A stretch of DNA of 50,364 bases from positions 1-50,364 of IMG/VR virus record IMGVR_UViG_2563366831_000011; one strand, written 5' to 3'. Numbering within the stretch: position 1 is the first letter of the stretch; the number at the start of each line of letters is the position of its first letter. The translations under genes were made by a program, and so were the position numbers. Origin of the DNA: a virus (lineage: Duplodnaviria; Heunggongvirae; Uroviricota; Caudoviricetes). The notes beneath the pieces were generated by a model. It had not been told where the DNA came from. It did not search any database and was given only the letters and a program-made list of their open reading frames with translations. Below are positions 2,410-34,232 of the stretch, piece after piece.

Positions 2410-3441
2410 TTACGCGAATTCTTCCACGATCGCCATGCCAGTAGCACCATCACCACCGGTAAATGCCGCACCGGTAAACCCAAGGTCATACGCGCCACCA
2501 CCACCGGATCCGGGAGCTGCGCCAGCAATACCGGCCTGAGAACCCGCCCGGCCACCGCCGCCAAAATACGACGCCCCGCCGTTGCCCGTCAGAAGGCTTG
2601 AGCCTGTCTGTCCATCTGAGCCGGTACCACCGTTGATCCTGATATCTCCGGTCGCCGCCGTACCTCCGGCGCCGCCGGCGGTATTGGACACGCCTGACTT
2701 CACGCCGCCTTTCCCGCCAGGAGCTGAGAACAGGCTGGCAAACGAGGTGGCCCCACCATCTGCACCACTTACTGCGCCAACTCCGCCCTTACCACCCTTG
2801 CCGACAGTAATCGCATAAGAACTGGCAGCAGACAGGTCAACCCATACGATAATGGTCGCGCCCGCGCCGCCGCCAGCACCGGAGAAGGTTTCTGTATTGT
2901 TGTAGGCCTGGCAGCCGCCACCGCCGCCACCGGCACCTGTCAACGTTACTTTTGCATAACGGGCCAGAGGAGATCGCGTATAGGTTCCGTTTGCATAGAA
3001 AGCTTTTGGAGCGCCAAGTGAACGCCCGACAAAACCAGAGGAATCAGATATTCCGAGGTTATAACGGGCTTCATTTACCGCATCCTCACCGGCATCTTTA
3101 ATTTCTGACAGGTTATTGCTGATCTGCAGGAACGATAACAATGATCCGGCTGTCATTAAATTCGCGACAATGTCATTCGTTGACCATACGCGTGCCGTTG
3201 TTCCTTCCTGACCACGAATTACTGTCATCACGTCACCGGATACAGACGTTACGTGCATAATTTCAGAAATTGTTTTCGTGGCCGCGTCGGTTATCGTTAA
3301 TTTGAAATAACTCTGCCCAGATACAGGAGAAGGGAATAAAGCCCCCGCTCCAGTTCCCACGGTAATAACGGTAGCGGACGCACTAATACCCGCAGCGAGA
3401 ACACTCTTTGCGTTATTATTGGCTAATAGCTTCAGCGCCAT
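2410..3441 (-). CDS. Tail fibre protein 2 with glycine-rich C-terminal module
   Basis: 343 aa. The N-terminal domain (ITVGTGAGALFPSP...YFKLTITD...VTSVSGDVMTVIRGQEGT) is typical of short fibre N-termini. The C-terminal roughly 190 aa is Gly-rich and paralogous to the C-terminus of the 431-aa fibre at 6914-8209. Confidence 0.7.
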   Translation of the reverse strand: MALKLLANNNAKSVLAAGISASATVITVGTGAGALFPSPVSGQSYFKLTITDAATKTISEIMHVTSVSGDVMTVIRGQEGTTARVWSTNDIVANLMTAGSLLSFLQISNNLSEIKDAGEDAVNEARYNLGISDSSGFVGRSLGAPKAFYANGTYTRSPLARYAKVTLTGAGGGGGGCQAYNNTETFSGAGGGAGATIIVWVDLSAASSYAITVGKGGKGGVGAVSGADGGATSFASLFSAPGGKGGVKSGVSNTAGGAGGTAATGDIRINGGTGSDGQTGSSLLTGNGGASYFGGGGRAGSQAGIAGAAPGSGGGGAYDLGFTGAAFTGGDGATGMAIVEEFA

Positions 3442-4769: not shown

Positions 4770-6899
4770 TTATTTTCTTAGGGATTGTACGGCGTAGTTC
4801 AGCAGTACTCGTTTTGCCTGATACGCGCCGATAATTCTGGCACCTCTGGCGTTAGGATGTGGGTCTGCGGGATTTGTTGTCGAATATGCATAGCCGTTCT
4901 GAAATGCAAAATTAGAATTCTTTATGAGGTCTCTTACATTGAATCCCAGCATTTTATAGGTTGACTGGATATTATCAAAAACGCTCTCACGCTTAATGTG
5001 ATTGTCGCTATACCAGCGCTCAAGGAAAATAGGCAATTTAGGAATCGCTGATTGAACACGTTCAACTATTGCACTATATCCGTTGAGAAAATCTGTGTCA
5101 GAAAGAGCATAATCATTTTCCCCAAGATTAATAAACGCGACATCCGGCTGAAAATATTGTATCCAGTATTGCTGATAAGACGCTGTTTGATTCAGGTAAT
5201 ACTGAAATGTTGCACCTCCTCTTGCGTAACGAATGACTCTGACGCCGCCAGCAGAGTTGATGCAATTGAAGCTGATCAGGGCAGGATAGCCTGCCTGACC
5301 AGATGCGGGAGGTTCAATTTCCAGGGCGAATCGACCTGAGTTCGGCCCCAGACCCTCCACCCTAACGATTGTTATCGTTTCGCTACCCTCAGGGTTATTC
5401 GGTATTGTGGCTGTTTGCCATTCCCCTGAACCCGCCGGGCCGGTGGAACCATCGTCATTCCTGTCGGTTGCACGGAACCGGAACTGACTAGATGTTCCGG
5501 CGTCTCCGGTACCAGTAAAACCGACCTCGACAACGTCGTGCTGATAAATGGGGTTGCTGCGGGCCGAATCTTTTACGCGAAAAAACAGGTTAGTTCGTCC
5601 AGCCCACGGTACTAGAGCAAAACTCAATGGTGCACATTTTTTCCCATAGGTCTGGTTATCGACCCAGCCAGTATAAACTAACTCCATATTCAGCAGATCT
5701 CTTGACGCTGTGTTATCGTTTGACGGTGCAAAATAACCGATACCCCCATGCCCAAGATTTGCTGCAAAAAGGCTGTACATAGCGTCAATGGCACCCAATC
5801 CCCCTGTGCCTGCAGTGAGAGAGTCACCCTGACAAAAAATAGTTAGATATCCTCCTGTGTATGCCCTTTCCTGCATCGCGATCATGTAATCAAGAAGACC
5901 AGTCTCTGGCAAGCTTGATGCAGCCTGAGAACCTCCTGACCCCGGCAATAGCAATTGGTCGTCGCTTCCGAGAATAGCGAATGGCGAAGATGAGTAGCCC
6001 TTTAAAATAGAACATCCGGCATCTTCTAAAGAATCAGTAGTTAAAAAAGATGCCATCTGGTTATCGCTTCCCATTACAGATAATGGCTTGCCTGGGATAC
6101 CGTAACCATATTTGATATCTGCCCCAGCATCGCGCATTCTGTCGCTATCATTGCCGTATTCAAGGACCTGATAATCAGTGCCTATGATTACGAATTTTTC
6201 ATCTCCGTATCCACTAAGAAATCTTACCCCTGCAAATATCCACGTTGAGGGCATCTGACGTCCGGTAGGCTGCAGCGTTCCGTCAACGTTTACTACCTCA
6301 ATAGCGAGCGTGTCGTCATTGTCAGTGCGATAATAAGCATTTGACCCAACAGGAATATTTCCAGCGTCTGCATCTGCCTGCGCCGCAGCCAGCGTCGGAA
6401 ACTCGCGGATTGTCCCTGTTATGGCCGCTGTACCCGGCTGCTTTGCCTGCAATACGGCCACGCCTGCTTTGTTTTGATACTGCCATGCAGCAGAAAGCGC
6501 ATCTGGACCTTGGGCTACCCAGAATGACTGCCCTTCAGTCGTTGCGGCCAGCCCGGCAATAGTGCCATCAGGATCGCTTGAGGTTTTATAGAATGTGAAC
6601 TTATTCCGTGCATATTCAGAGGCATCATTCTTGTACTCTTCAGCCTGCGCAGCTGAACCTGCGGCTGCCGTTGCCGATTCGGATGAGGCAGCGGCCGAAG
6701 TAGCAGCACTTTGTTCGGCCGTTTCTGCTGAGTTCTTGGCAGCTTCAGCCGCAGTTGCAGCATTAATCGCTTCCTGAGTGGTGGCGCTAATATCCTGATA
6801 GCCCTGCTGGACCTCGATCAGGTACTGCTTTGCCTCTGCGGCACTCACGGACGCCTCTGCCGCGAACTGTGCCGTTTGCTGTGTGTCGGTAGTCGCCAT
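4770..6899 (-). CDS. Tail spike/fibre with C-terminal SGNH (GDSL) esterase domain
   Basis: The N-terminus is an Ala-rich coiled-coil fibre shaft. The C-terminal half carries block I CQGDSLTAG, block III INLGENDY and block V DPHPNARG, all SGNH hydrolase hallmarks. ATG at 6899 follows AGGA; a GTG at 6920 is an alternative start. Confidence 0.7.
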   Translation of the reverse strand: MATTDTQQTAQFAAEASVSAAEAKQYLIEVQQGYQDISATTQEAINAATAAEAAKNSAETAEQSAATSAAASSESATAAAGSAAQAEEYKNDASEYARNKFTFYKTSSDPDGTIAGLAATTEGQSFWVAQGPDALSAAWQYQNKAGVAVLQAKQPGTAAITGTIREFPTLAAAQADADAGNIPVGSNAYYRTDNDDTLAIEVVNVDGTLQPTGRQMPSTWIFAGVRFLSGYGDEKFVIIGTDYQVLEYGNDSDRMRDAGADIKYGYGIPGKPLSVMGSDNQMASFLTTDSLEDAGCSILKGYSSSPFAILGSDDQLLLPGSGGSQAASSLPETGLLDYMIAMQERAYTGGYLTIFCQGDSLTAGTGGLGAIDAMYSLFAANLGHGGIGYFAPSNDNTASRDLLNMELVYTGWVDNQTYGKKCAPLSFALVPWAGRTNLFFRVKDSARSNPIYQHDVVEVGFTGTGDAGTSSQFRFRATDRNDDGSTGPAGSGEWQTATIPNNPEGSETITIVRVEGLGPNSGRFALEIEPPASGQAGYPALISFNCINSAGGVRVIRYARGGATFQYYLNQTASYQQYWIQYFQPDVAFINLGENDYALSDTDFLNGYSAIVERVQSAIPKLPIFLERWYSDNHIKRESVFDNIQSTYKMLGFNVRDLIKNSNFAFQNGYAYSTTNPADPHPNARGARIIGAYQAKRVLLNYAVQSLRK

Positions 6900-8798: not shown

Positions 8799-10023
8799 TT
8801 ACCGCCTCCGTTATGATGTTTGTCGCATCGAGGGTCGGTTCCTGATCTATCCCCATAGTCAGCGCACTAGACCAGGTGGTTCCGTCCAGAGAGATCTGGA
8901 CAGAAAGAACGTTCATGTTCTGTGCATCGAGCGCCTGAATGGGTCCGATATAGCGGCTGCCATAAATTCGCGCGCCGGCACGCGCCCGGGTACCTCCATC
9001 TGCGCCGGTAAAGGCATTCAGGACGACCGTTCTGATCTGCGCGTTGATATCTGACGGAAGGCCATCATTTTCCTCATATTCCACCTTGATATGAACACTC
9101 ACCGCGTCCAGCGTTTTCCACCTGTAGGTGTACTCCGGATAAGGGGCGTCATAATTTTCGGTATCCTGCACGGTCCCGGTGGTGTCACCGTTCATAACGG
9201 TGCCCGGGGGGAGTTTTTTATTGATGGCCGCTGCAATCTCAGCTACTGCCCCGCCATAAACCCCGATATAAATCGAGCTGGCCAGCAGTGTGTAATTCGT
9301 GGAACCTTTTTCGACGGAAGTCGGCTCTTTGTTGTCGATCACATAAACATCAAGCACCCCGTCGACTTCCAGGACAGCAGCCCGCACAGCCGCCGCCGTG
9401 TTGAAGGCGTTACGTGCCACTGACTGGCGACGGCGATACTCAAATGCAGATCGCCCTTCAACATTCGAGCCCGGTACACCCGCGGTCTCGTTGGTGATAC
9501 TCGACCAGCCACTTACCGCGACATAGATGTTTGTCAGCGTACCGATGGGGCAAGCTATCGGACCGGTAGTCAGGTTCTGGAACTCAATTTTTACCGTCCC
9601 GTCTGCGCCAATCGTTCCGGCCGCCAGGGACACGTACATATAACCGTTATCGTCTGTTGCATAGGACTGTGCCGGAATAACCGTTCCCGGTACGCCGGAG
9701 CATGTGGCCGTTACAACCGTACCCGCAGCAGCAATACGATCGAGGAAGTAAATCCTGCCAATGCCATCCTGAAATCTTCCGGAGGAAAAGTCCGGGTTCA
9801 TGTTGTTGACGATAGCCAGAAGCTGATCGTTCTTGTCTGCGATGATTGCAGTATCAGTGACAGCCAGTTGCCCCTGTGGCGTCTTGAGGTTCGTGCTCAT
9901 CGCCGTCCCGAATGCAGAACCAATATCTGCTATACGCCCGGCAAGAATGTCTCCCTCATCCGGAACATCAAGGCCAGTGGTGGAAAAGGTCACGGCCGGT
10001 ACCGCCGTAGAGATTGTCGTCAT
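8791..10023 (-). CDS. Baseplate J-like wedge protein
   Basis: 410 aa counted from the ATG at 10023 (SD GAGGAAAAA). Size and position (after a small W/gp25-sized protein, before the fibres) fit a baseplate J family member. Confidence 0.55.
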   Translation of the reverse strand: MTTISTAVPAVTFSTTGLDVPDEGDILAGRIADIGSAFGTAMSTNLKTPQGQLAVTDTAIIADKNDQLLAIVNNMNPDFSSGRFQDGIGRIYFLDRIAAAGTVVTATCSGVPGTVIPAQSYATDDNGYMYVSLAAGTIGADGTVKIEFQNLTTGPIACPIGTLTNIYVAVSGWSSITNETAGVPGSNVEGRSAFEYRRRQSVARNAFNTAAAVRAAVLEVDGVLDVYVIDNKEPTSVEKGSTNYTLLASSIYIGVYGGAVAEIAAAINKKLPPGTVMNGDTTGTVQDTENYDAPYPEYTYRWKTLDAVSVHIKVEYEENDGLPSDINAQIRTVVLNAFTGADGGTRARAGARIYGSRYIGPIQALDAQNMNVLSVQISLDGTTWSSALTMGIDQEPTLDATNIITEAVSE

Positions 10024-12706: not shown

Positions 12707-13294
12707 TCACGGCTCCAGGGGTTCAGTTCGGCTTCCTCCTGATACTACCCCACCATGAGTATGCCCATCAACGATAGAACCGTCGACAAGCTCAAGCTGC
12801 CCGTTTGGATGGACTTTCAGGCCGTTGATGTTAACCACTCCAGGGCTCTGTATGTTTATTCCGCTTCCTGTAAACTCAGCGAACTCCGTGGGTTCATCGT
12901 TCAAACTAGCGATAGCAGTGATGTAAACAGCATCCGAGTATGAATGGCGCCGCTGAGTTGGCGGTGGTCCACTTTGCCTTGACGCTCTGACATTGGTTGT
13001 GTCTTTGTCACAGGCGATTACCAGTCCAATATCGCCAATGCGGGGAGTCATTTTTACAGCGCTGTTCCCAGCCTGATACCGAATGAAGGGGATGTCATAT
13101 ACCTCCTGACATTTAATCTCCCCCCCGGAAACGTTCGCGCCGCTCACAAGAGGTAGCACAGTCATAACGCCATCACCAACATCTTTAACCAGAACAATAT
13201 CTGCAAAAACATTGCCCTTTGATGCCGTGGCTATAAGGGACAAGATCGCGTTACCCTGACAGGAGATATCAGAAGCTTTTTGGTTAGTTGCCAT
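12707..13294 (-). CDS. Baseplate central spike / assembly protein V-like (Mu gp45 / P2 gpV type)
   Basis: 195 aa from MATNQKASD. It has an OB-fold-like N-half, and the C-terminus GSIVDGHTHGG is reminiscent of spike tips. The start was chosen at 13294, overlapping the upstream stop. Confidence 0.55.
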   Translation of the reverse strand: MATNQKASDISCQGNAILSLIATASKGNVFADIVLVKDVGDGVMTVLPLVSGANVSGGEIKCQEVYDIPFIRYQAGNSAVKMTPRIGDIGLVIACDKDTTNVRASRQSGPPPTQRRHSYSDAVYITAIASLNDEPTEFAEFTGSGINIQSPGVVNINGLKVHPNGQLELVDGSIVDGHTHGGVVSGGSRTEPLEP

Positions 13295-17958: not shown

Positions 17959-18516
17959 TCATGATTCGGTAAGCGCACCAGGAAAACCGGGCAATGCCAA
18001 CTGACCTTGCTTGTCCAGTTGCTCAATGCGTGAAAGTAGCTGTGGCTTCTTCTCTTTCCCCCACCGGCGCAACAGACGACCAGACATACTGGCAACATCC
18101 TTCTCTTTAAGGAACTCCAGCATGACGGCGTTACGCTCTTCTTCAAACTGGCGCCGCCCAACCTGAAGCATCGCGTACATCCAGTTGAAGGCGTTGATGT
18201 AGGCGATCTTGATACGCATCGCCTCTTTTTTGGTGTAGGACATAACCAGAAGCATCAATCCATCTTTGCGGAGGCGATAGAACTTCTGCGGCTTTCCGTT
18301 CTGCAACTCATTGTTTTTATAGCAAACCTCAAAATTGAGTTTTGTATCGAACTCTTCCGGGCATGCCTTAATAGTCTTTTCGATATCACGAATGACGTTG
18401 TCAGGACGTTTCCCAAATGCCTTCGCCACCATAAACGAGTCAGTTACCGGGTCGTTGTCAGCAACAAAAATGAGGTCACGGAAATCAAGTCCGTTAATAA
18501 CTGTTGGGTATGACAT
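17959..18516 (-). CDS. rha: Rha-family phage regulatory protein (copy A), inserted in the tail operon
   Basis: 185 aa. VTDSFMVAKAFGKRPDNVIRDIEK...KFYRLRKDGLMLLVMSYTKKEAMRIKIAYINAFNWM is the pRha-domain pattern. It is a paralogue of 31312-31836. Confidence 0.75.
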   Translation of the reverse strand: MSYPTVINGLDFRDLIFVADNDPVTDSFMVAKAFGKRPDNVIRDIEKTIKACPEEFDTKLNFEVCYKNNELQNGKPQKFYRLRKDGLMLLVMSYTKKEAMRIKIAYINAFNWMYAMLQVGRRQFEEERNAVMLEFLKEKDVASMSGRLLRRWGKEKKPQLLSRIEQLDKQGQLALPGFPGALTES

Positions 18517-19140: not shown

Positions 19141-20621
19141 TACTGCACCTCCGTGCTGTTAACGGTGATACCCTGGATGATCCCGCCGTCGGTGTACCAG
19201 AAGTAAACCGTTGGCTTGGTACGCGCGGCGCGCATTGCCGGGGTGAACGGGCCGATGTAGACGTAATACCCTTCAGCCATAAGCGAATCCGTAACATCGA
19301 CGCCAGCGATGGCGTTAATCTGGTCGATCTGCGACTGGTCAAGATCGGTGCCCGCCGTCATGCCACCCCACGCCCTGAATTGCTCAATGGTCGGCTTCAT
19401 GCACGACTCAATGCGAGCTTTTCCGGCTGCTGCGTAGGGCAGATTGCTCGCCTGCTGGAACAGCGCAACGAGAGCCGCCTGCAACTGAGCATTTACCCAT
19501 ACCTGACCAGCCCATGCGTCAAGCCAGGCATAATCACCGGTAATAGAGCCGGGTGCCCACTGGTTGGTTTCGACGGCATTCGAGGCATAGTTGCCGTAGA
19601 AGTTATAACCGTTGGCCTTGGCCGCCTCGTAATCAGTATCGTTACTGATCATCGGCAACAGGCCGGACACCTGACGACCATTCAGCGAACAGCGCCCATT
19701 GGCCTGCGTGAAGTTCAGCGCGGCCACAAACCCCATCGCATTTGCTGCGTGGTTCGGGTAACCATACACCGGGCAGGTATCGTTATAGGCGTAGGTGTTG
19801 ATGATGTCGTACACCAGTGCATTCGAGCTGCCCGCCACGATTGCCGTTCCTGATGCGTCCCATGGGACATAGGCAAAGCGGTGGTTCTGGCTGTTTGTCC
19901 AGAGCGCAAACGCATTAGCCTGGTCTTTGGTGACAGCGAACGTCGTGGAGAATGTTACCCAGTCCTGCTCTTTGGCCAGAATGGCAGTAAAGATATCGTC
20001 AACCACTGCCGGCGCCGCACCCTGAGAGATCACCGCGCCGGTCGCTTCGGTCAGTTTCAGACCCGTAGCAAGCGTACCTTCATCGGCAAAGGTAATGGTG
20101 CTATCCACGCCCGTGGTGGCAGAGGTGATGATGAATTTCTTCAGCACGCTATCCCAGGTCACTACAACCGAGGAGCCAATGCCGGTTTCAATCAGCTCTG
20201 CCGCGTTATCAAAACTGGTGGCGCCGCTGAGGTTGATAGCCGCAGAAGTCTCCTCCGTGCCGTCAACTGTCAGAGTCAACGTACCAGAAAGCAACTTGAG
20301 CTGTGCCAGCGTGGTCGCTGCGTGCGATCCGGAACGAAGGAATGCCGCCACTGCTGCGGTATTGAATCGGCTAAAATACAGCTTGCCAGGCATCTGTGTT
20401 TTACCGGTGAATGCGGCGAAATACAGCACCGCGGCGGTGTACTCAATCGACGCGCTGCCGAAGTACGCCTTTACCTCATCCGCACTGGAAAATGAGGGTA
20501 CTGCACCAACCGGCGCATATGCGCTGTCGGTCAGGAACAGGCCATTGAGATCAATAGCTGTCCCTGTCGCCTTCAGTACGCCGGGAAGCATCTGGGCGAT
20601 TTTTGATAGCGAAATTGCCAT
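19140..20621 (-). CDS. Contractile tail sheath protein (DUF3383-like by recollection)
   Basis: 493 aa, positioned between the neck proteins and the tube gene. Confidence 0.65.
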   Translation of the reverse strand: MAISLSKIAQMLPGVLKATGTAIDLNGLFLTDSAYAPVGAVPSFSSADEVKAYFGSASIEYTAAVLYFAAFTGKTQMPGKLYFSRFNTAAVAAFLRSGSHAATTLAQLKLLSGTLTLTVDGTEETSAAINLSGATSFDNAAELIETGIGSSVVVTWDSVLKKFIITSATTGVDSTITFADEGTLATGLKLTEATGAVISQGAAPAVVDDIFTAILAKEQDWVTFSTTFAVTKDQANAFALWTNSQNHRFAYVPWDASGTAIVAGSSNALVYDIINTYAYNDTCPVYGYPNHAANAMGFVAALNFTQANGRCSLNGRQVSGLLPMISNDTDYEAAKANGYNFYGNYASNAVETNQWAPGSITGDYAWLDAWAGQVWVNAQLQAALVALFQQASNLPYAAAGKARIESCMKPTIEQFRAWGGMTAGTDLDQSQIDQINAIAGVDVTDSLMAEGYYVYIGPFTPAMRAARTKPTVYFWYTDGGIIQGITVNSTEVQ

Positions 20622-29503: not shown

Positions 29504-29989
29504 TCAGTCCAGCCCTTCTAACCTTCCCTCCAGCTTCTGCTGGGCCTTCGCATAGTCTTCAGCGGTGTACGTCACCTGATTCAGTGGGCCGCCGTCTTTA
29601 CCGGTCAGCTCGACCTTTTGCTTGTTGCTGTAGGCGTCGCCAACCTCTTTTGCAGCCTGCTCCAGTAACTGAGCTGTCATGCCGAGGTTTTTCATACCTT
29701 CGGCAGTCGTAGACATTCGCTGAAGGACGCGCAGGCGGTAGGCTTTATTGGCGATCGGAATGTCGGAGATTTCGTTGAGGAAGCGGTCGCGGGTAAGGTT
29801 GAAAAGTTCGACCCATTTTTGAGCCAGACCTTTCCCTGCCACCTTTGTCGGGTCATGCGATGCCACCTGCTGGCGCGTTACCTGAACCTTGAATTCTTTT
29901 TGTACGGACTCGACGATTTGGGATGGCGTATCAAAGCATGCAAGCTCTTGAATGATAAAGGCTCTCACTTCTGGTTTTAGTGCAGCCAT
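29504..29989 (-). CDS. Terminase small subunit (DUF2280-like)
   Basis: 161 aa, immediately upstream of TerL, with a helix-turn-helix-like N-terminus. Confidence 0.6.
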   Translation of the reverse strand: MAALKPEVRAFIIQELACFDTPSQIVESVQKEFKVQVTRQQVASHDPTKVAGKGLAQKWVELFNLTRDRFLNEISDIPIANKAYRLRVLQRMSTTAEGMKNLGMTAQLLEQAAKEVGDAYSNKQKVELTGKDGGPLNQVTYTAEDYAKAQQKLEGRLEGLD

Positions 29990-30019: not shown

Positions 30020-30688
30020 TCACGCCAGCTTAAGCATGCACGTCCCGCACGCTCTGGCAACATCGATATGAGCAACCTCCGCCGGCCTGTTCGCAGCATC
30101 CACCATTTCCTGCACGTCTTTGCTGGCGCCGTAACGCCGGACAACTCCGACGAATTCCTCGACGTCGTGGCCGCGAAGTTTGAGCACCGGCATACCGGTC
30201 TCTTTGTTGAATTTCGGCGCGCCATAGTCATCGGTAGCCTGGGCGATGTGGTAAAGCTCATGCTCTACCAGTGCGCAGAACTCCAGATCGTTGCATTGCT
30301 CGCAGTAGTCAGCAGCCAGGGTGATGATGAACTTCGGTATGCGTCCGAACCATTCATGCATCTGCTGCTCCATTCTGGCTTTCTGCCAGCCACCGGCGCG
30401 CATCATTACCTGCTCACACTGGCCCAGCACAATGCGGCCGCTTTTGGCGAATGAGCCAGAGGCCCACATGAACGCGACATCAGCATCGAGCAAGTGCGCA
30501 TGGTCAGGGTTATGGATTCGGCCATCTTCGGAGAGGATGTTCTGATTTACCCATTCGCCGATTTCGGCAGCAGGGATCAGCCGGGTATAAGGCAGCCAGT
30601 TTTCGCCAGTGAAGTTGACGGGAGGGTATGGTCTGCGATTGTCATTTCCAGCCATACAGAATAATCCTCTGGGTTGCTTTGATGCCAT
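30020..30688 (-). CDS. Putative phage metallopeptidase (HExxH)
   Basis: 222 aa with an HELYH motif. This is the first ORF of the late packaging block. The alternative start at 30655 (MAGNDN...) has the better SD (AGAGGA). Confidence 0.6.
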   Translation of the reverse strand: MASKQPRGLFCMAGNDNRRPYPPVNFTGENWLPYTRLIPAAEIGEWVNQNILSEDGRIHNPDHAHLLDADVAFMWASGSFAKSGRIVLGQCEQVMMRAGGWQKARMEQQMHEWFGRIPKFIITLAADYCEQCNDLEFCALVEHELYHIAQATDDYGAPKFNKETGMPVLKLRGHDVEEFVGVVRRYGASKDVQEMVDAANRPAEVAHIDVARACGTCMLKLA

Positions 30689-30828
30689 TTCGGTAATTTC
30701 GACACCGCAGTACCCGTAAACTCACATAAAACTCTGTCAATGATACAAAAAGGCATCATTTGCAGAACTTTATAAAATTATTGAACGCCTCTTTCGGTAC
30801 CTACCTTTGTCTGCCGGCATGGATGTGC

Positions 30829-30848
30829 TTGTCTCTTATAAGAGACAA
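30829..30848. repeat. 20-bp perfect palindrome TTGTCTCTTATAAGAGACAA
   Basis: I checked the base pairing position by position. It lies in a 550-bp non-coding gap. Confidence 0.9.
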
Positions 30849-30890
30849 AGACTGCTCAGAAGCTATTAAGACTCACTATTAGGAAGGGCT

Positions 30891-30908
30891 TGTCCAACAC
30901 GTTGGACA
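30891..30908. repeat. Inverted repeat TGTCCAAC-ac-GTTGGACA, sharing its 8-mer with the ori iterons
   Basis: The arms equal the GTTGGACA core of the six iterons at 39214-39308. Confidence 0.85.
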
Positions 30909-31041
30909 CTCAATAGTGGCGAGTATAGAACGAAAAATAACCGTTCAAGGCCTTTAATGTTACACGAGTAGGAACAGCCACAGGAGGAATAAGTTACACA
31001 ATAGAAATCAGACTTCGCCCAATAATCAAAAAGGAGAATAA

Positions 31042-31158
31042 ATGTTGAAAATCAGTTTGTTTAGAACAATCGTCAATCACAAAATAACCTTCGCTGTCAT
31101 CTGCTTCCTTTTGAGCCTGATTCACTTCTACTTAACCGGCTCGCCTCTATCTTTCTAA
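31042..31158 (+). CDS. 38-aa hydrophobic mini-protein, antisense to the late transcript (below the ORF-track cutoff)
   Basis: AAGGAG SD lies 6 nt before the ATG. The product is MLKISLFRTIVNHKITFAVICFLLSLIHFYLTGSPLSF, with one predicted TM helix. Confidence 0.4.
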   Translation: MLKISLFRTIVNHKITFAVICFLLSLIHFYLTGSPLSF

Positions 31159-31311
31159 TCCTCGATTAATCCAAATTTCACTGCCATAATGCCGACATTC
31201 TCTGCCATTGTTGGCTCCGTTTATCCGTTAAAAGGGATATCAGTTAAGTTATCCCGTGCAGGGTATAAGCCATTATCAAGCCCCCCGTAGATAGGCTTTG
31301 TAATGACATCT

Positions 31312-31836
31312 TCAATTAATCAGCAGTTCAGGCTGTGTCACCTGCAAGATGTATTCATGCTCGACAGCCAGGACACGCTTCTCTTTCTTCCGTTCGTTCA
31401 TTAACCGACTGCCGATCGTACCTTTCAGCTTTGAGCGTGTTTCTTTGATGGCGTAGCGGTGCTGCATTTCTTCGCCAATTGCCATGCGGCGGCTCAGTTG
31501 CTCTGCCATCCAGTTGAATGCTGCGATATAGCTCTCCTTGATTGCCGCAGCAGCTTTCCCGGTGAACCCCATCACAACCATGATCCAGCCATCTTTCGTC
31601 AGGCTGTACATCGGGCGAACCTTGCCCTGCTCATCGATATAATCAGCCGACGCAAAATTGCGTTGGCTAAACTCACGCGAGCAATCAGCCTTAACCTGCT
31701 CGATTTTCCTGAGAACATCACCGTGTCGCTTGCCGAAGTACTTGGCAATTTTTCTGGATGTGGTAACGACCTCTCCGTTTTTGGCTTGCACCATTTCTCG
31801 GAAGTCGAAGGCTGGAATAACTGAATGATTATTCAT
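31312..31836 (-). CDS. rha: Rha-family phage regulatory protein (copy B)
   Basis: 174 aa from MNNHSVIPAFDF. VTTSRKIAKYFGKRHGDVLRKIEQ...MYSLTKDGWIMVVMGFTGKAAAAIKESYIAAFNWM is the pRha pattern. Confidence 0.75.
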   Translation of the reverse strand: MNNHSVIPAFDFREMVQAKNGEVVTTSRKIAKYFGKRHGDVLRKIEQVKADCSREFSQRNFASADYIDEQGKVRPMYSLTKDGWIMVVMGFTGKAAAAIKESYIAAFNWMAEQLSRRMAIGEEMQHRYAIKETRSKLKGTIGSRLMNERKKEKRVLAVEHEYILQVTQPELLIN

Positions 31837-31978
31837 AGCGTCTTTACCTTTTAGAAAGTGAGCCTGTCTCACAGAAAAGCCGCCCGAGAGAGGTCGCCAC
31901 CTATAACGGCATTTCTCAGGCTCGCTTACTGAAAGGCTCTCGTGAATATGCGCGTGAGATGCGCATTTACTGCGGACA
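31837..31978 (-). promoter_or_regulatory. Conserved structured 5' leader of rha (copy B)
   Basis: Homologous to 18517-18665. It has hairpins ATGCGC-atctcac-GCGCAT and GAGCCUGAGAAAUGCCG...CGGCUUUUCUGUGAGACAGGCUC. CCUUU...AAAGG pairing reaches the SD region. Confidence 0.45.
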
Positions 31979-32034: not shown

Positions 32035-32472
32035 TTATTTCAGGCATTGCGCCCTGATGTATTCCTGCAGGTAGTTGACCTGTGCGGTTATCTTGTCGAT
32101 TCCACTTCGGAGACGGTAATAATTGAGTTCAGCATCTGCTGTAAGTCTTGGGCTTTCTCCATCGCCCATGCTGCTGGCTCTGGTCGTTGATTTTGCACAG
32201 GTGGCGGCGACTTGCAGGCGCTTACGCCCAGAAGAAACATCAGCACGGAGACTTTCGATAGTCGCGTTAGCATCAGCAAGCTCCTTTGTATATCTGGCGT
32301 CGAGTTCTGCTACGTCACGTTGACGCTTCTGCATGTCAGCGATGATGGATGTGGCTTTGTCGCGCTGGGCTTTGTAGGCGATGGCGTTATCACGGTAATG
32401 ATTAACAGCCCATAACAGGCAGACGATGATGCAGATAACCAGAGCGGAGATAATCGCGGTGACTCTGCTCAT
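32035..32472 (-). CDS. Rz: i-spanin Rz
   Basis: 145 aa with an N-terminal TM segment and a coiled coil. It follows the endolysin gene and resembles P22 gp15 / lambda Rz. Confidence 0.85.
32088..32279 (-). CDS. Rz1: o-spanin Rz1 (embedded, +1 frame within Rz)
   Basis: It has a lipobox (LLGVSAC) followed by a Pro-rich segment [16 protein letters not shown]. The precise start is uncertain. Confidence 0.7.
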
Positions 32473-32945
32473 GCCTCAATCTCTCTGACCGTTCCGCCTG
32501 CTTCTTTGAATTTTGAAATCAGACTGTCAGCCTTATGCTCGAACTGACCATAACCAGCGCCCGGCAATGAAGCCCAGATATTGCTGCAACGGTCGATTGC
32601 CTGACGAATATCACCGCGGTCAATCATCGGTAAAGCGCCACGCTCTTTAATCTGTTGCAGTGCCACAGCGTCCTGGCTTTTCGGAGAGAAGTCTTTCAGG
32701 CCAAGCTGCTTGCGGTAGGCATCCCACCAACGGGAAAGAAGCTGGTAGCGTCCGGCGGCTGTTGATTTGAGTTTGGGGTTTAGCGTGACAAGTTTGCGAG
32801 GGTGATCGGAGTAATCAGTGAATAGCTCTCCGCCAACAATGACGTCATAACCATGATTTCTGGTTTTCTGACGTCCGTTATCAGTTCCCTCTGACCACGC
32901 CAGCATATCGAGGAACGCCTTACGTTGATTATTGATTTCCACCAT
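32469..32945 (-). CDS. R: Endolysin, lambda R-type lytic transglycosylase
   Basis: 158 aa. [39 protein letters not shown] matches lambda R as I recall it. Confidence 0.9.
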
Positions 32946-33252
32946 CTTCTACTCCGGCTTTTTTAGCAGCGAAGCGTTTGATAAGCGAACCAATCGAGTC
33001 AGTACCGATGTAGCCGATGAACACGCTCGTTATATAAGCGAGATTGCTACTTAGTCCGGCGAAGTCGAGAAGGTCACGAATGAACCAGGCGATAATGGCG
33101 CACATCGTTGCGTCGATTACTGTTTTTGTAAACGCACCGCCATTATATCTGCCGCGAAGGTACGCCATTGCAAACGCAAGGATTGCCCCGATGCCTTGTT
33201 CCTTTGCCGCGAGAATGGCGGCTAACAGGTCATGTTTTTCTGGCATCTTCAT
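32929..33252 (-). CDS. S: Holin, lambda S (dual-start MKM motif)
   Basis: 107 aa. [39 protein letters not shown] matches lambda S107/S105. Confidence 0.9.
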
Positions 33253-33494: not shown

Positions 33495-33570
33495 TGGTGC
33501 TGTTTAACGGACTTGAACCGCTACCCATTCGCTTACAAGGCGACCGCTCTACCATTGGAGCTAAAACAGC
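33495..33570 (-). tRNA. Phage tRNA-Thr (anticodon UGU)
   Basis: The reverse complement is GCTGTTTTAGCTCCAATGGTAGAGCGGTCGCCTTGTAAGCGAATGGGTAGCGGTTCAAGTCCGTTAAACAGCACCA. It has a 7-bp acceptor stem, the anticodon loop CTTGTAA, and a T-loop TTCAAGT. There is one mismatch at the base of the anticodon stem. Confidence 0.75.
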
Positions 33571-33575
33571 ATGTT

Positions 33576-33650
33576 TGGCGGGACAGCGTGGACTCGAACC
33601 ACGATAAGAAGGTTAACAGCCTTCCGTAATGACCTTTATACGACTGACCC
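33576..33650 (-). tRNA. Phage tRNA-Asn (anticodon GUU)
   Basis: The reverse complement is GGGTCAGTCGTATAAAGGTCATTACGGAAGGCTGTTAACCTTCTTATCGTGGTTCGAGTCCACGCTGTCCCGCCA. It has a perfect anticodon stem GAAGG/CCTTC with loop CTGTTAA and a T-arm CGTGG-TTCGAGT-CCACG. There is one acceptor mismatch and a weak D-stem. Confidence 0.7.
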
Positions 33651-33713: not shown

Positions 33714-34232
33714 CTAAATGGATAATTGCATGTCAAGGCTTTTAACAGCAACATGCTTAACTTTCTCAACACGTTTACGCATTTTAAAAGCATTTTGCAT
33801 TGGCTGGTATAAAACAAATAATGACGCTTTCAGGATGTCGTCAATTTCGTTTCTACAGGTTGCCAGTGAAGGTTTTCTCCATCCCTCGCCACCACGTCCA
33901 CACATCTTGCGTGGCTTTGCAGTCGCGTGATAGTAGGATGCAATTGCTCGCTTAGATGAACCATGAGCGTAGTAGCTTAGGAGGATGCCAAAGGCTTTCT
34001 TGTCAATGTACATGACGGAATCGACGACCTGAGAAATCAACATTCCATCGTCATCATTACACATTGGCCTTGTCATAACTCTTCCCGGCTCTACGCTCTC
34101 CATGAACTTCGCTATTACGCTGCTCATGCGCTTTTCCAGACGACCTGAATAAACCCATGCGCCCCACAGTTCAAGCCAGCCATTCAGCCACTCATGCTGT
34201 TCTTTGGTGAGGTTTAGTTCTCTTATGCCCAC
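33714..34232 (-). CDS. Late-gene antiterminator Q (non-lambda Q family)
   Basis: 172 aa. The position (after the nin genes, before lysis) and the motif [14 protein letters not shown] are typical of Q proteins of the phage 21/82 type. It has a GTG start that overlaps the ninI stop. Confidence 0.7.

Follow-up and report, generated by a model that had tools for sequence, protein, structure and literature searches.

The window analyzed here (the whole 50,364-nucleotide, or 50-kb, stretch of the viral record IMGVR_UViG_2563366831_000011) is a lambdoid Escherichia coli prophage that carries, convergent with its late operon, a 38-codon mini open reading frame (mini-ORF) preceded by four tandem, same-strand motifs of the single-subunit phage RNA polymerase (RNAP) promoter type, all located in the 180 nt upstream of the ORF. 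Comparison with related loci reveals a constant wiring in sequence, namely a conserved ORF placed behind co-oriented and swappable promoters of foreign phages, with no recognizable host promoter. These features suggest that the cassette is probably a promoter trap, in which the RNAP of an infecting podophage would induce a membrane peptide and the infection would abort. In broader terms, we lean slightly toward the view that such cassettes constitute a natural, modular promoter-capture immunity in the temperate phages of Enterobacteriaceae, in which up to four specificities of virulent Autographiviridae would be set before a tiny membrane-toxin gene, with promoter slots and effectors being swapped in an arms race and with neither a protein sensor nor an antitoxin.

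Four Podophage-Type Promoters Precede the Mini-ORF

The cassette motifs (M0 to M3; Table 1) share the 20- to 23-bp family layout of Autographiviridae promoters (T7, BA14, K11, SP6/K1-5, Kp7, KL01, and the KP34 group), to which they are exact or near-consensus matches. This layout consists of an AT-rich segment at −17 to −13, a specificity block at −12 to −8, and (C)ACTATAG, AGTATAG, or ACAATAG at −7 to +1. M0, M1, and M3 were analyzed by consensus scans of the 50-kb window and with weight matrices derived from the promoters of BA14, Kp7, and KL01; each of the three corresponds to one site in the window by consensus scan, against a chance expectation of 0–0.02. M0 is the sole window match to TAATACGACTCACTATTGGGA at three or fewer mismatches (0 expected by chance), and its BLAST matches fall on features annotated as "promoter" in phages BA14, Kvp1, and FE44. 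Its position weight matrix (PWM) score is 22.8 bits, compared with a BA14 median of 33 and with 15.0 for the second-best window site. M1 is the sole window match to its consensus, with one mismatch (0 expected by chance), the Kp7 copies having the consensus TTAATAGTGGCGAGTATAGAA(C/G)AG. It scores 31.8 bits, with genuine Kp7 promoters at 21.6–39.3 (leave-one-out) and the second-best window site at 13.2. M3 is also a sole window match, with one mismatch (0.02 expected by chance), and its PWM score of 26.2 bits lies in the range of genuine KL01 promoters (18.7–32.4; second-best window site, 12.6). KL01, a member of the Autographiviridae with its own RNAP gene, was found by BLAST of a 32-mer, a scan of the collection with the 15-mer AGTTACACAATAGAA being too unspecific (119 single chance matches). 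Its copies of the motif are mostly intergenic, and one, TTAATTAAGTTACACAATAGAATGCAG, stands immediately before the capsid gene. M0, M1, and M3 each exceed any other site in the window by at least 7.8 bits; the scores of M1 and M3 are typical of genuine Kp7 and KL01 promoters, and M0 scores lower, yet well over background.

BLAST of M2 returned 250 records, 227 of them Klebsiella phages of ~43–44 kb, with the motif in at least two places each. In phage KpV41, for example, in which just four copies of the motif were found, TTAATGTGATACGAGTAGGAACA is located at 12717 in an intergenic region and TTTAATGTTACAGGAGTAGGAAT at 20603, directly 3′ of the RNAP gene. Relatives contain the exact Drulisvirus consensus, TTAATGTTACAGGAGTAGGA, at the M2 position. 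In the podophages themselves the motifs recur in co-directional copies, all on the plus strand (9 in KL01, 12 in Kp7, and 13 in K1-5, together with 16 annotated promoters in BA14 and 13 in K11), some of them just before capsid genes. By every test at the sequence level, these are promoters of the Autographiviridae type, and the cognate RNAPs would be predicted to fire at them. A single podophage could not have supplied four promoter specificities.

Hairpins and neighboring stretches of podophage type accompany the array. BLAST of 30827–30849, which spans the perfect palindrome upstream of M0, finds intergenic Autographiviridae sites in KL01 (18195–18217; two places), Klebsiella phage 6939, Ralstonia phage Reminis, and Aeromonas phage Tola. 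The segment 30886–30934, containing the second hairpin and M1, is 84–90% identical over ~50 nt to many 44- to 46-kb Klebsiella podophages and to one Proteus podophage, in which it occurs at 8–12 places per genome; the best copy in Kp7 is at 5857–5913, just 3′ of the RNAP gene, and the hairpin at 30890–30908 is also present in K1-5 at 9569–9603. In E. coli cassettes of the B type, an analogous hairpin, GGCTTGTCTCACACGTGAGACAAGCC, is located 3′ of the T7-like promoter.

The Promoters Are Co-oriented and Swappable among Relatives

A T7/SP6-type motif is present ~40–70 nt upstream of every ORF in the related cassettes. A consensus scan of 51 unique cassettes gave 102 promoter matches on the ORF strand within 300 nt upstream; the opposite strand had 0 matches there, and the 300 nt downstream had 0 on each strand. 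When 1.3 Mb of prophage loci were scanned with PWMs, at a threshold above the lowest genuine-promoter score, 144 hits fell just upstream of cassettes and 11 elsewhere; among the matches listed, the latter are variant-flank cassettes or duplicated degenerate units. The first slot is interchangeable, being occupied by a BA14-like, a T7-like (TAATGCGACTCACTATAGAGAGA), or a K11-like motif (AATTAGGGCCCACTATAGAGACC), and the K11-like versions score 28.8 bits, compared with 25.5–38.7 for the annotated promoters of K11. Cassettes unmatched by the nine consensus sequences contain T3-like motifs (e.g., ATTAACCCTCACTATAGG) or further SP6-like motifs, together with 5′ stem-loops resembling the leader of the Kp7 capsid gene.

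The E. coli cassettes of the B/C family harbor the exact 21-mer ATTTACTGGACACTATAGAAG. In IMG/VR each cassette is preceded by one copy of this 21-mer, and the genomes of SP6-like podophages (43- to 45-kb contigs) contain several copies each. The 21-mer is also the consensus of the 13 plus-strand promoters of K1-5, four of which are exact copies, including one before the capsid gene. B-type cassettes carry, in addition, a BA14/T7-like promoter with its hairpin upstream of the K1-5-type promoter. Overall, the Klebsiella cassettes display promoters of the sampled Klebsiella podophage groups, and the E. coli cassettes display K1-5- and T7-group-like promoters. In degenerate copies (loci L029 and L015), the promoters and the start codon have been lost together.

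Two further arrangements were observed. On the minus strand of the IMG/VR locus L220 (~3224–3400), and also in L183, AAGGAG and an ORF of 39 amino acids (aa), MFMPEMISLATALVELAKPIVEVICHWLKLEINKRYGVN, come after an SP6-type promoter, ATTTACGGGACACTATAGAAG. As this cassette type lies in another flank context, the phenomenon is not confined to the site next to the o-spanin flank described below. A second promoter, ATTTAGGGGACACTATAGAAG, is found ~700 nt away, with only doubtful small ORFs behind it. In E. coli B-type loci, a second, degenerate cassette unit is fused to an HNH-endonuclease remnant (L015, reverse strand, 3101–3300; L002, 2550–2720); this unit has a mutated promoter core, GACAGTATAGGGGGG, and a spoiled Shine–Dalgarno (SD) sequence and has lost its ATG, which suggests tandem duplication followed by decay.

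The Mini-ORF Is a Conserved Gene for a Hydrophobic Peptide

The product of the mini-ORF, MLKISLFRTIVNHKITFAVICFLLSLIHFYLTGSPLSF (38 aa), reaches a hydropathy maximum of 2.3 at residues ~15–31 (Kyte–Doolittle, 17-residue mean). AlphaFold2, supplied with a 23-sequence alignment, predicts one helix spanning residues 2–32, with a mean predicted local distance difference test score (pLDDT) of 79.9. In length and hydrophobicity, the peptide falls within the class of toxin-type ORFs of type I toxin–antitoxin systems (hydrophobic, <60 aa). A preliminary description of the window, made from the letters alone, had noted a hydrophobic 38-aa product with one membrane-spanning stretch, encoded on the plus strand among minus-strand neighbors, and both observations hold, the latter after the neighboring genes were checked by Pfam. 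The AAGGAG that it placed 6 nt before the ATG is also present, the spacer being one base shorter, at 5 nt.

The ORF was assessed in relatives with anchors on either side. With an upstream anchor that lies outside the ORF, an intact ORF with SD sequence and ATG was found at +85 to +87 in 11/11 IMG/VR loci, one of which encodes a fifth, unrelated peptide (MSHIEIIHLIDSYVLL...). With a downstream-flank anchor, which shares the stop codon with the ORF and none of the ORF body, an SD-led ORF of 32–41 aa that ends at the same TAA was found in 127 of 142 evaluable loci. The other 15 are mostly deletion remnants; in L029 the start codon is gone and the upstream motifs have decayed. At least eight mutually unrelated peptide families occupy the same slot, and all those of the relatives have AAGGAG, AAGGAGG, or GGAGG 4–8 nt before the ATG. 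The relatives differ at the N terminus (MLKISLLSTIV... in Klebsiella phage Kp4864-1, MFHSTSHQAVIM... in E. coli IAI39, and MLEVLNTLAPF... in E. coli CFS3246) and share the frame, the stop codon, and the strong SD sequence. The in-frame ratio of nonsynonymous to synonymous substitution rates (dN/dS), computed after removal of duplicate DNA sequences, is 0.2–0.63. Five families were tested, and in all but the MFH family the ORF frame gives the lowest value of the three. These results, which supply the test of conservation and Ka/Ks among relatives that the preliminary description had called for, indicate that the mini-ORF is a real, conserved gene. It had allowed that the ORF might be noncoding, an alternative that is rejected because of this conservation pattern; its other suggestion, of a small moron, agrees with an independent, real gene on the opposite strand in the late region.

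In protein databases, an alignment query retrieved 36 clusters from E. coli and Klebsiella, all named "hypothetical" or "uncharacterised." A scan of species-representative genomes gave two matches, in Pseudocitrobacter and Enterobacter, one genome per species being a poor sample of prophage cargo. The peptide matches no Pfam or NCBIfam family, and its PHROGs matches are at chance level only (E ≥ 0.098). PADLOC returned 0 families for seven peptide families at E ≤ 10. The possibility of a stolen podophage gene was rejected: tblastn with the peptides found no match in KL01, Kp7, BA14, or ~70 SP6-like stretches, and a representative D-like peptide matches two lambdoid phages only, among 50,697 phage records.

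Proposed Mechanism and Points against It

T7-like phages bring host transcription to a halt and rely solely on their own promoters, and their polymerases are highly active on any DNA that bears such promoters. We propose that the cassette, which faces the prophage late operon and in which four promoters are joined to the peptide gene by a short unstructured leader with a strong ribosome-binding site, would exploit this property. Each promoter would be specific for the polymerase of another group of virulent Autographiviridae (M0, T7/BA14; M1, Kp7; M2, KP34/Drulisvirus; M3, KL01). In the lysogen the gene would be silent, and no antitoxin would be needed, because the host RNAP has no recognizable promoter here. 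As the sole recognizable promoters are those of unrelated virulent phages, the gene should be off in the lysogen and on upon superinfection. A podophage that enters the cell would shut off host transcription and make its own polymerase, which would read the trap promoters and drive massive peptide synthesis. The peptide would then insert into the inner membrane and kill or permeabilize the cell before progeny are finished, by abortive infection or premature lysis. Firing of these polymerases at the sites, toxicity of the peptide to the membrane, and protection of the lysogen population are the steps that we infer.

Several observations weigh against this mechanism. M0 scores under the BA14 median, and the Drulisvirus consensus behind M2 was deduced from repeated motifs rather than from annotation. 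Moreover, M1–M3 match podophages isolated on Klebsiella, whereas the host of the window is E. coli, and in this genome the trap may be mismatched cargo, recently imported. Some E. coli copies have a mutated promoter core, as does IAI39 (GACAGTATAGGAG). The dN/dS values are moderately below 1 (~0.5–0.9 in the B/C family), and in Klebsiella phages the last ~20 codons overlap the o-spanin tail on the opposite strand, which confounds the selection analysis there. Finally, the cassette is present in one chromosomal copy, which has to take effect before host DNA is degraded by the podophage. In the O7:K1 strain IAI39 (L002, 2868–2888), the K1-5-type promoter differs by two changes, GACAGTATAGGAG in place of GACACTATAGAAG; these could reflect decay or adaptation to a variant polymerase.

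Host Signals and Alternative Explanations

The preliminary description had envisaged a peptide that is made in the lysogen until antisense transcription of the late region silences it, on a logic like that of type I systems, and a type I-like toxin or a lysogen-expressed moron, with a host promoter and control by antisense RNA or by the late transcript, is the alternative most directly addressed by the host signals in the region. The peptide does resemble type I toxins in size, hydrophobicity, and strong SD sequence, its position and opposite orientation recall those of lambda bor, which has a comparable location and strand, and the late transcript is necessarily antisense to the ORF. However, a consensus scan of 30500–31500 detected no sigma-70-type promoter on either strand, although an atypical promoter might escape such a scan, and no relevant intrinsic terminator for a host-driven unit was found, the terminator-like sites in the scan being unrelated. 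Rfam at gathering thresholds identified three tRNAs only, and at E ≤ 10 on 30600–31400 it gave only chance matches to small nucleolar RNA and RsaOG models; by the promoter scan and Rfam, there is no candidate for an antisense or divergent small RNA (sRNA) antitoxin with its own host promoter. In addition, the predicted transcript 31004–31175 has a folding energy of −18.1 kcal/mol (z = +0.96 relative to shuffled controls). It is less structured than the shuffles, and therefore the SD sequence is not sequestered, as the type I model would have it. Searches of Pfam, NCBIfam, and PHROGs revealed no homology to the Hok, Ldr, Ibs, TisB, ShoB, Zor, DinQ, or Fst toxin families, and four podophage promoters aimed at the ORF would be left without a reason. 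The proposal of antisense silencing is thereby left unsupported, and we regard a type I-like or host-expressed gene as very unlikely.

Two prophage systems were considered in this context. The Hfq sRNAs of the AgvB/AsxR group in lambdoid prophages of enterohemorrhagic E. coli, which act as anti-sRNAs, lie between PR′ and the lysis genes (PMC4104026). They are defined by a position 3′ of PR′ at the stx/moron site, a 51- to 60-nt sRNA, and an Rfam model; the cassette occupies a different site and has no Rfam match to them. The hokW-sokW locus of Sp5 was also rejected, as its paper gives no locational link and no Hok-family profile matched the peptides.

The other alternatives concern what the promoters would serve. 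The same invader-polymerase trigger might release a nonsuicidal effector that inhibits or mistimes the podophage (an antiholin, a premature holin acting with the podophage amidase, or a block of a membrane step), so that the cell may survive and the outcome is exclusion. The cassette directly adjoins the spanin/lysis module, the peptides are predicted single-helix membrane peptides, and many unrelated peptide families could mirror different phage targets, all of which would suit such an effector. Yet the peptides show no similarity to any holin or antiholin family in Pfam or PHROGs, the ORF is on the strand opposite to the holin and lysis module, and unrelated peptides behind the same promoter arrays fit a generic membrane insult better than target-specific binding; on balance we judge this explanation unlikely. 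A function at the RNA or DNA level, with the ORF incidental, is rather more doubtful: the array might be a polymerase decoy, direct antisense transcription into the lysis genes, or consist of recombination scars from co-infecting podophages. The ~50-bp hairpin-plus-promoter stretches are clearly copied from podophage genomes, and transcripts started in the array would be antisense to Rha, Rz, and the presumed endolysin gene. Scars, however, would not be strictly co-oriented (102 vs. 0), nor always be trailed at ~35–70 nt by a constant-length, SD-led ORF in at least eight unrelated families, and the promoters and start codon decay together; one chromosomal copy, moreover, would make a poor decoy. 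Least credible, to the point of being nearly negligible, is the idea that the motifs are sites for the prophage's own proteins, such as pac- or cosB-like repeats for the small terminase, with a coincidental likeness to podophage promoters. The elements do lie upstream of the small-terminase module at intervals of ~35–45 bp, a spacing superficially similar to that of the cosB R sites. But the four motifs do not constitute a repeat series, and each fits a different phage group's multicopy promoter at genuine-promoter scores, including exact 18- to 21-mers, which led us to discard cosB/pac-like terminase repeats. In addition, the packaging modules beside this cassette are unrelated to one another, with DUF1441 in IAI39 and DUF2280/TerL in both CFS3246 and the window.

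Comparison with Known Systems

The type I toxins Hok, TisB, Ldr, Ibs, ShoB, ZorO, and DinQ are, like the peptide, single hydrophobic helices of <60 aa encoded by tiny ORFs with strong SD sequences on mobile elements. The cassette differs from them in lacking an antisense or divergent sRNA, a host promoter, a folded leader, and sequence homology. Their control is also distinct: type I toxins are released by antitoxin decay after host shut-off, whereas the cassette would be under positive control through promoters specific for the invader's polymerase. Exclusion of T4 by hok/sok, reportedly described by Pecota and Wood in 1996, is said to involve release of the toxin by a transcriptional event due to the infecting phage.

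Podophage late-gene leaders resemble the cassettes in that a promoter is followed by a 5′ stem-loop and a strong SD sequence. Unlike the Autographiviridae promoters, however, the cassette resides in the genome of a temperate siphophage that encodes no such polymerase, and it concatenates four specificity groups before one gene, an arrangement absent from all podophage genomes that were examined. Phage-triggered suicide systems built by engineering, as well as pET/T7 expression, share with the proposed trap a gene that is silent until phage-specific transcription and is then massively expressed, the phage-polymerase expression logic being that of Studier's T7 system. Djordjevic, O'Sullivan, Walker, Conkling, and Klaenhammer reportedly used, in 1997, a promoter of Lactococcus phage phi31 to drive a lethal restriction cassette. 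Such suicide systems are laboratory constructs, whereas the cassette would be a natural, widespread, and multi-input version.

A looser likeness exists to satellite–helper transactivation (P4/P2 Ogr-delta, derepression of phage-inducible chromosomal islands and Staphylococcus aureus pathogenicity islands [PICI/SaPI], and PLE/ICP1), in which a resident element senses a phage via that phage's gene-expression machinery. Satellites answer by replicating and packaging themselves and employ protein activators or antirepressors; in contrast, the sensor of the cassette would be a bare promoter and its sole output a 38-aa peptide. Finally, lambda bor, rexAB, and sieB share with the cassette a niche between Rz and the packaging genes and a general role as accessory cargo able to serve the defense of host or prophage. 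bor and rex have host promoters in the lysogen, whereas the cassette has no lipobox, homology, or host promoter. A full-text literature search, the coverage of which is incomplete such that an earlier description may have been missed, uncovered no account of these peptides or of a defense based on promoter capture.

Prevalence and Implications

The K1-5-type E. coli cassette (promoter plus ORF, 201 nt) is present in 626 of 5,426 complete genomes (11.5%), 412 of which match at ≥99% identity. Among the matches listed, no annotated feature underlies it; scattered records alone label the cassette ORF "hypothetical," and none of the RefSeq hits examined annotates it. Klebsiella forms occur in hundreds to >1,000 contigs. 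The A-type cassette of the window is rare in E. coli, as no complete genome covers ≥80% of the gap in which it lies; among the complete E. coli genomes of the collection, none carries 30689–31311 in the form seen in the window.

If the proposed mechanism is correct, these cassettes would represent a new sensing principle in bacterial immunity, in which the sensor is the enemy's promoter DNA and not a protein, and the trap, being read only by the enemy polymerase, would be resistant to the shut-off of host transcription. They would also explain post-adsorption resistance to T7-, SP6-, K1-5-, KP32-, KP34-, and Kp7-like phages, which are the main podophages in phage therapy of Klebsiella and E. 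coli K1, and would provide a predictor, readable from the genome, of the podophage groups against which a strain is armed. A compact natural part for phage-responsive kill switches would become available as well. More generally, a common element would have been missed by standard annotation, and prophage intergenic regions could encode specificity as promoter arrays, invisible to gene-centered searches for defense systems.

Genomic Setting and Origin of the Cassette Site

The mini-ORF lies within a 623-bp gap (30689–31311) of the minus-strand late operon, the genes of which were called by Pfam unless marked by position (Table 1). The first 2.5 kb of the window contain yfdC, tRNA-Arg, and intS of the E. 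coli host, the lambdoid prophage being integrated beside tRNA-Arg/yfdC; positions 1–2500 are 100% identical to E. coli strain SW07096. Two tRNA genes are present on the late strand at 33498–33650, between Q and the holin gene, and CFS3246 has tRNA-Thr and tRNA-Asn at this position. Within the late operon, a regulatory gene of the Rha family separates Rz from the cassette; at this place relatives contain a hypothetical gene of 50 or 79 aa, or no gene.

Table 1. Features of the mini-ORF cassette and of the surrounding late region of the window
Feature	Position	Strand	Basis and remarks
Perfect palindrome TTGTCTCTTA/TAAGAGACAA, podophage-type hairpin upstream of the array	30829..30848	+	Read from sequence
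Promoter M0, TATTAAGACTCACTATTAGGAAG, T7/BA14 (Studiervirinae) type	30864..30886	+	Predicted +1 A30881; 161-nt leader to ATG
Inverted repeat TGTCCAAC-AC-GTTGGACA	30890..30908	+	Hairpin brought along with M1 from a Kp7-like podophage
Promoter M1, CAATAGTGGCGAGTATAGAACGA, Klebsiella phage Kp7 (Molineuxvirinae) type	30911..30933	+	Predicted +1 G30928; 114-nt leader
Promoter M2, TTAATGTTACACGAGTAGGAACAGC, Drulisvirus (KP34/KpV41, Slopekvirinae) type	30954..30978	+	BLAST and repeated motif
Promoter M3, GAATAAGTTACACAATAGAAATCA (...TAAGTTACACAATAGAAATC), Klebsiella phage KL01 type	30987..31010	+	Predicted +1 G31004; 38-nt A/U-rich leader
Shine–Dalgarno sequence AAGGAG	31031–31036	+	Read from sequence; 5-nt spacer AATAA before ATG
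38-aa mini-ORF, proposed effector peptide	31042..31158	+	ATG 31042, TAA 31156–31158; single hydrophobic helix
Decayed 3′-end remnant of overlapped o-spanin (Rz1) gene, travels with the cassette	31159..31185	−	Comparison with Kp4864-1
Presumed large terminase, 558 aa	27826–29502	−	Position and annotation of relatives (TerL in CFS3246); no Pfam match
DUF2280 small terminase	29504–29989	−	Pfam
PhageMetallopep	30020–30688	−	Pfam
Rha (Phage_pRha)	31312–31872	−	Pfam
Rz	32035–32472	−	Pfam
Presumed endolysin, 158 aa	32469–32945	−	Position and annotation of relatives (GH24 in CFS3246); no Pfam match
Holin	32929–33252	−	Pfam
Q antiterminator	33714–34232	−	Pfam

The conserved downstream flank of the cassette corresponds, in Kp4864-1, to the 3′ half of a lipobox-bearing 116-aa ORF on the minus strand (LLTAC...QCNLDKAGIRK) that overlaps Rz. 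As read from the sequences, variants of the flank differ by synonymous or conservative substitutions when translated in this o-spanin frame. The flank in the window has stop codons in the frame and is 80% identical to that of Kp4864-1 over 30 nt. The flank is thus a decayed o-spanin remnant, and the cassette therefore came here with a piece of its former neighbor. In Kp4864-1 itself (L001, 3409–3759, minus strand), the o-spanin ORF extends, on the antisense strand, across the final ~62 nt of the mini-ORF, and its C-terminal tail after ...DKAGIRK therefore varies with the inserted cassette (IEESRLGRSESGSKGSR vs. VEEERRSTLQ). The o-spanin 3′ end in Klebsiella phages accounts for the conservation of the flank, not for the cassette. 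Minus-strand coding under the ORF or flank was likewise rejected, as the window contains a 43-aa antisense ORF and a 17-aa ORF, read by eye, neither of which is conserved in frame.

The spacer between the mini-ORF and Rha (31159–31311) is a mosaic, with the decayed o-spanin 3′ end coming first. The region 31100–31250 is ~95% identical to many E. coli prophages. Positions 31199–31311, noncoding here, are 88–97% identical to DUF2560/Gp49 family genes by the lysis region of P22/Sf6-like phages (Sf6 genes 66/67, HK140, and SEN22), and ~31262–31300 comprises a degenerate copy of a strong bidirectional terminator hairpin that is intact in IAI39 (AAAGCCACTC...GAGTGGCTTTT) and in other relatives.

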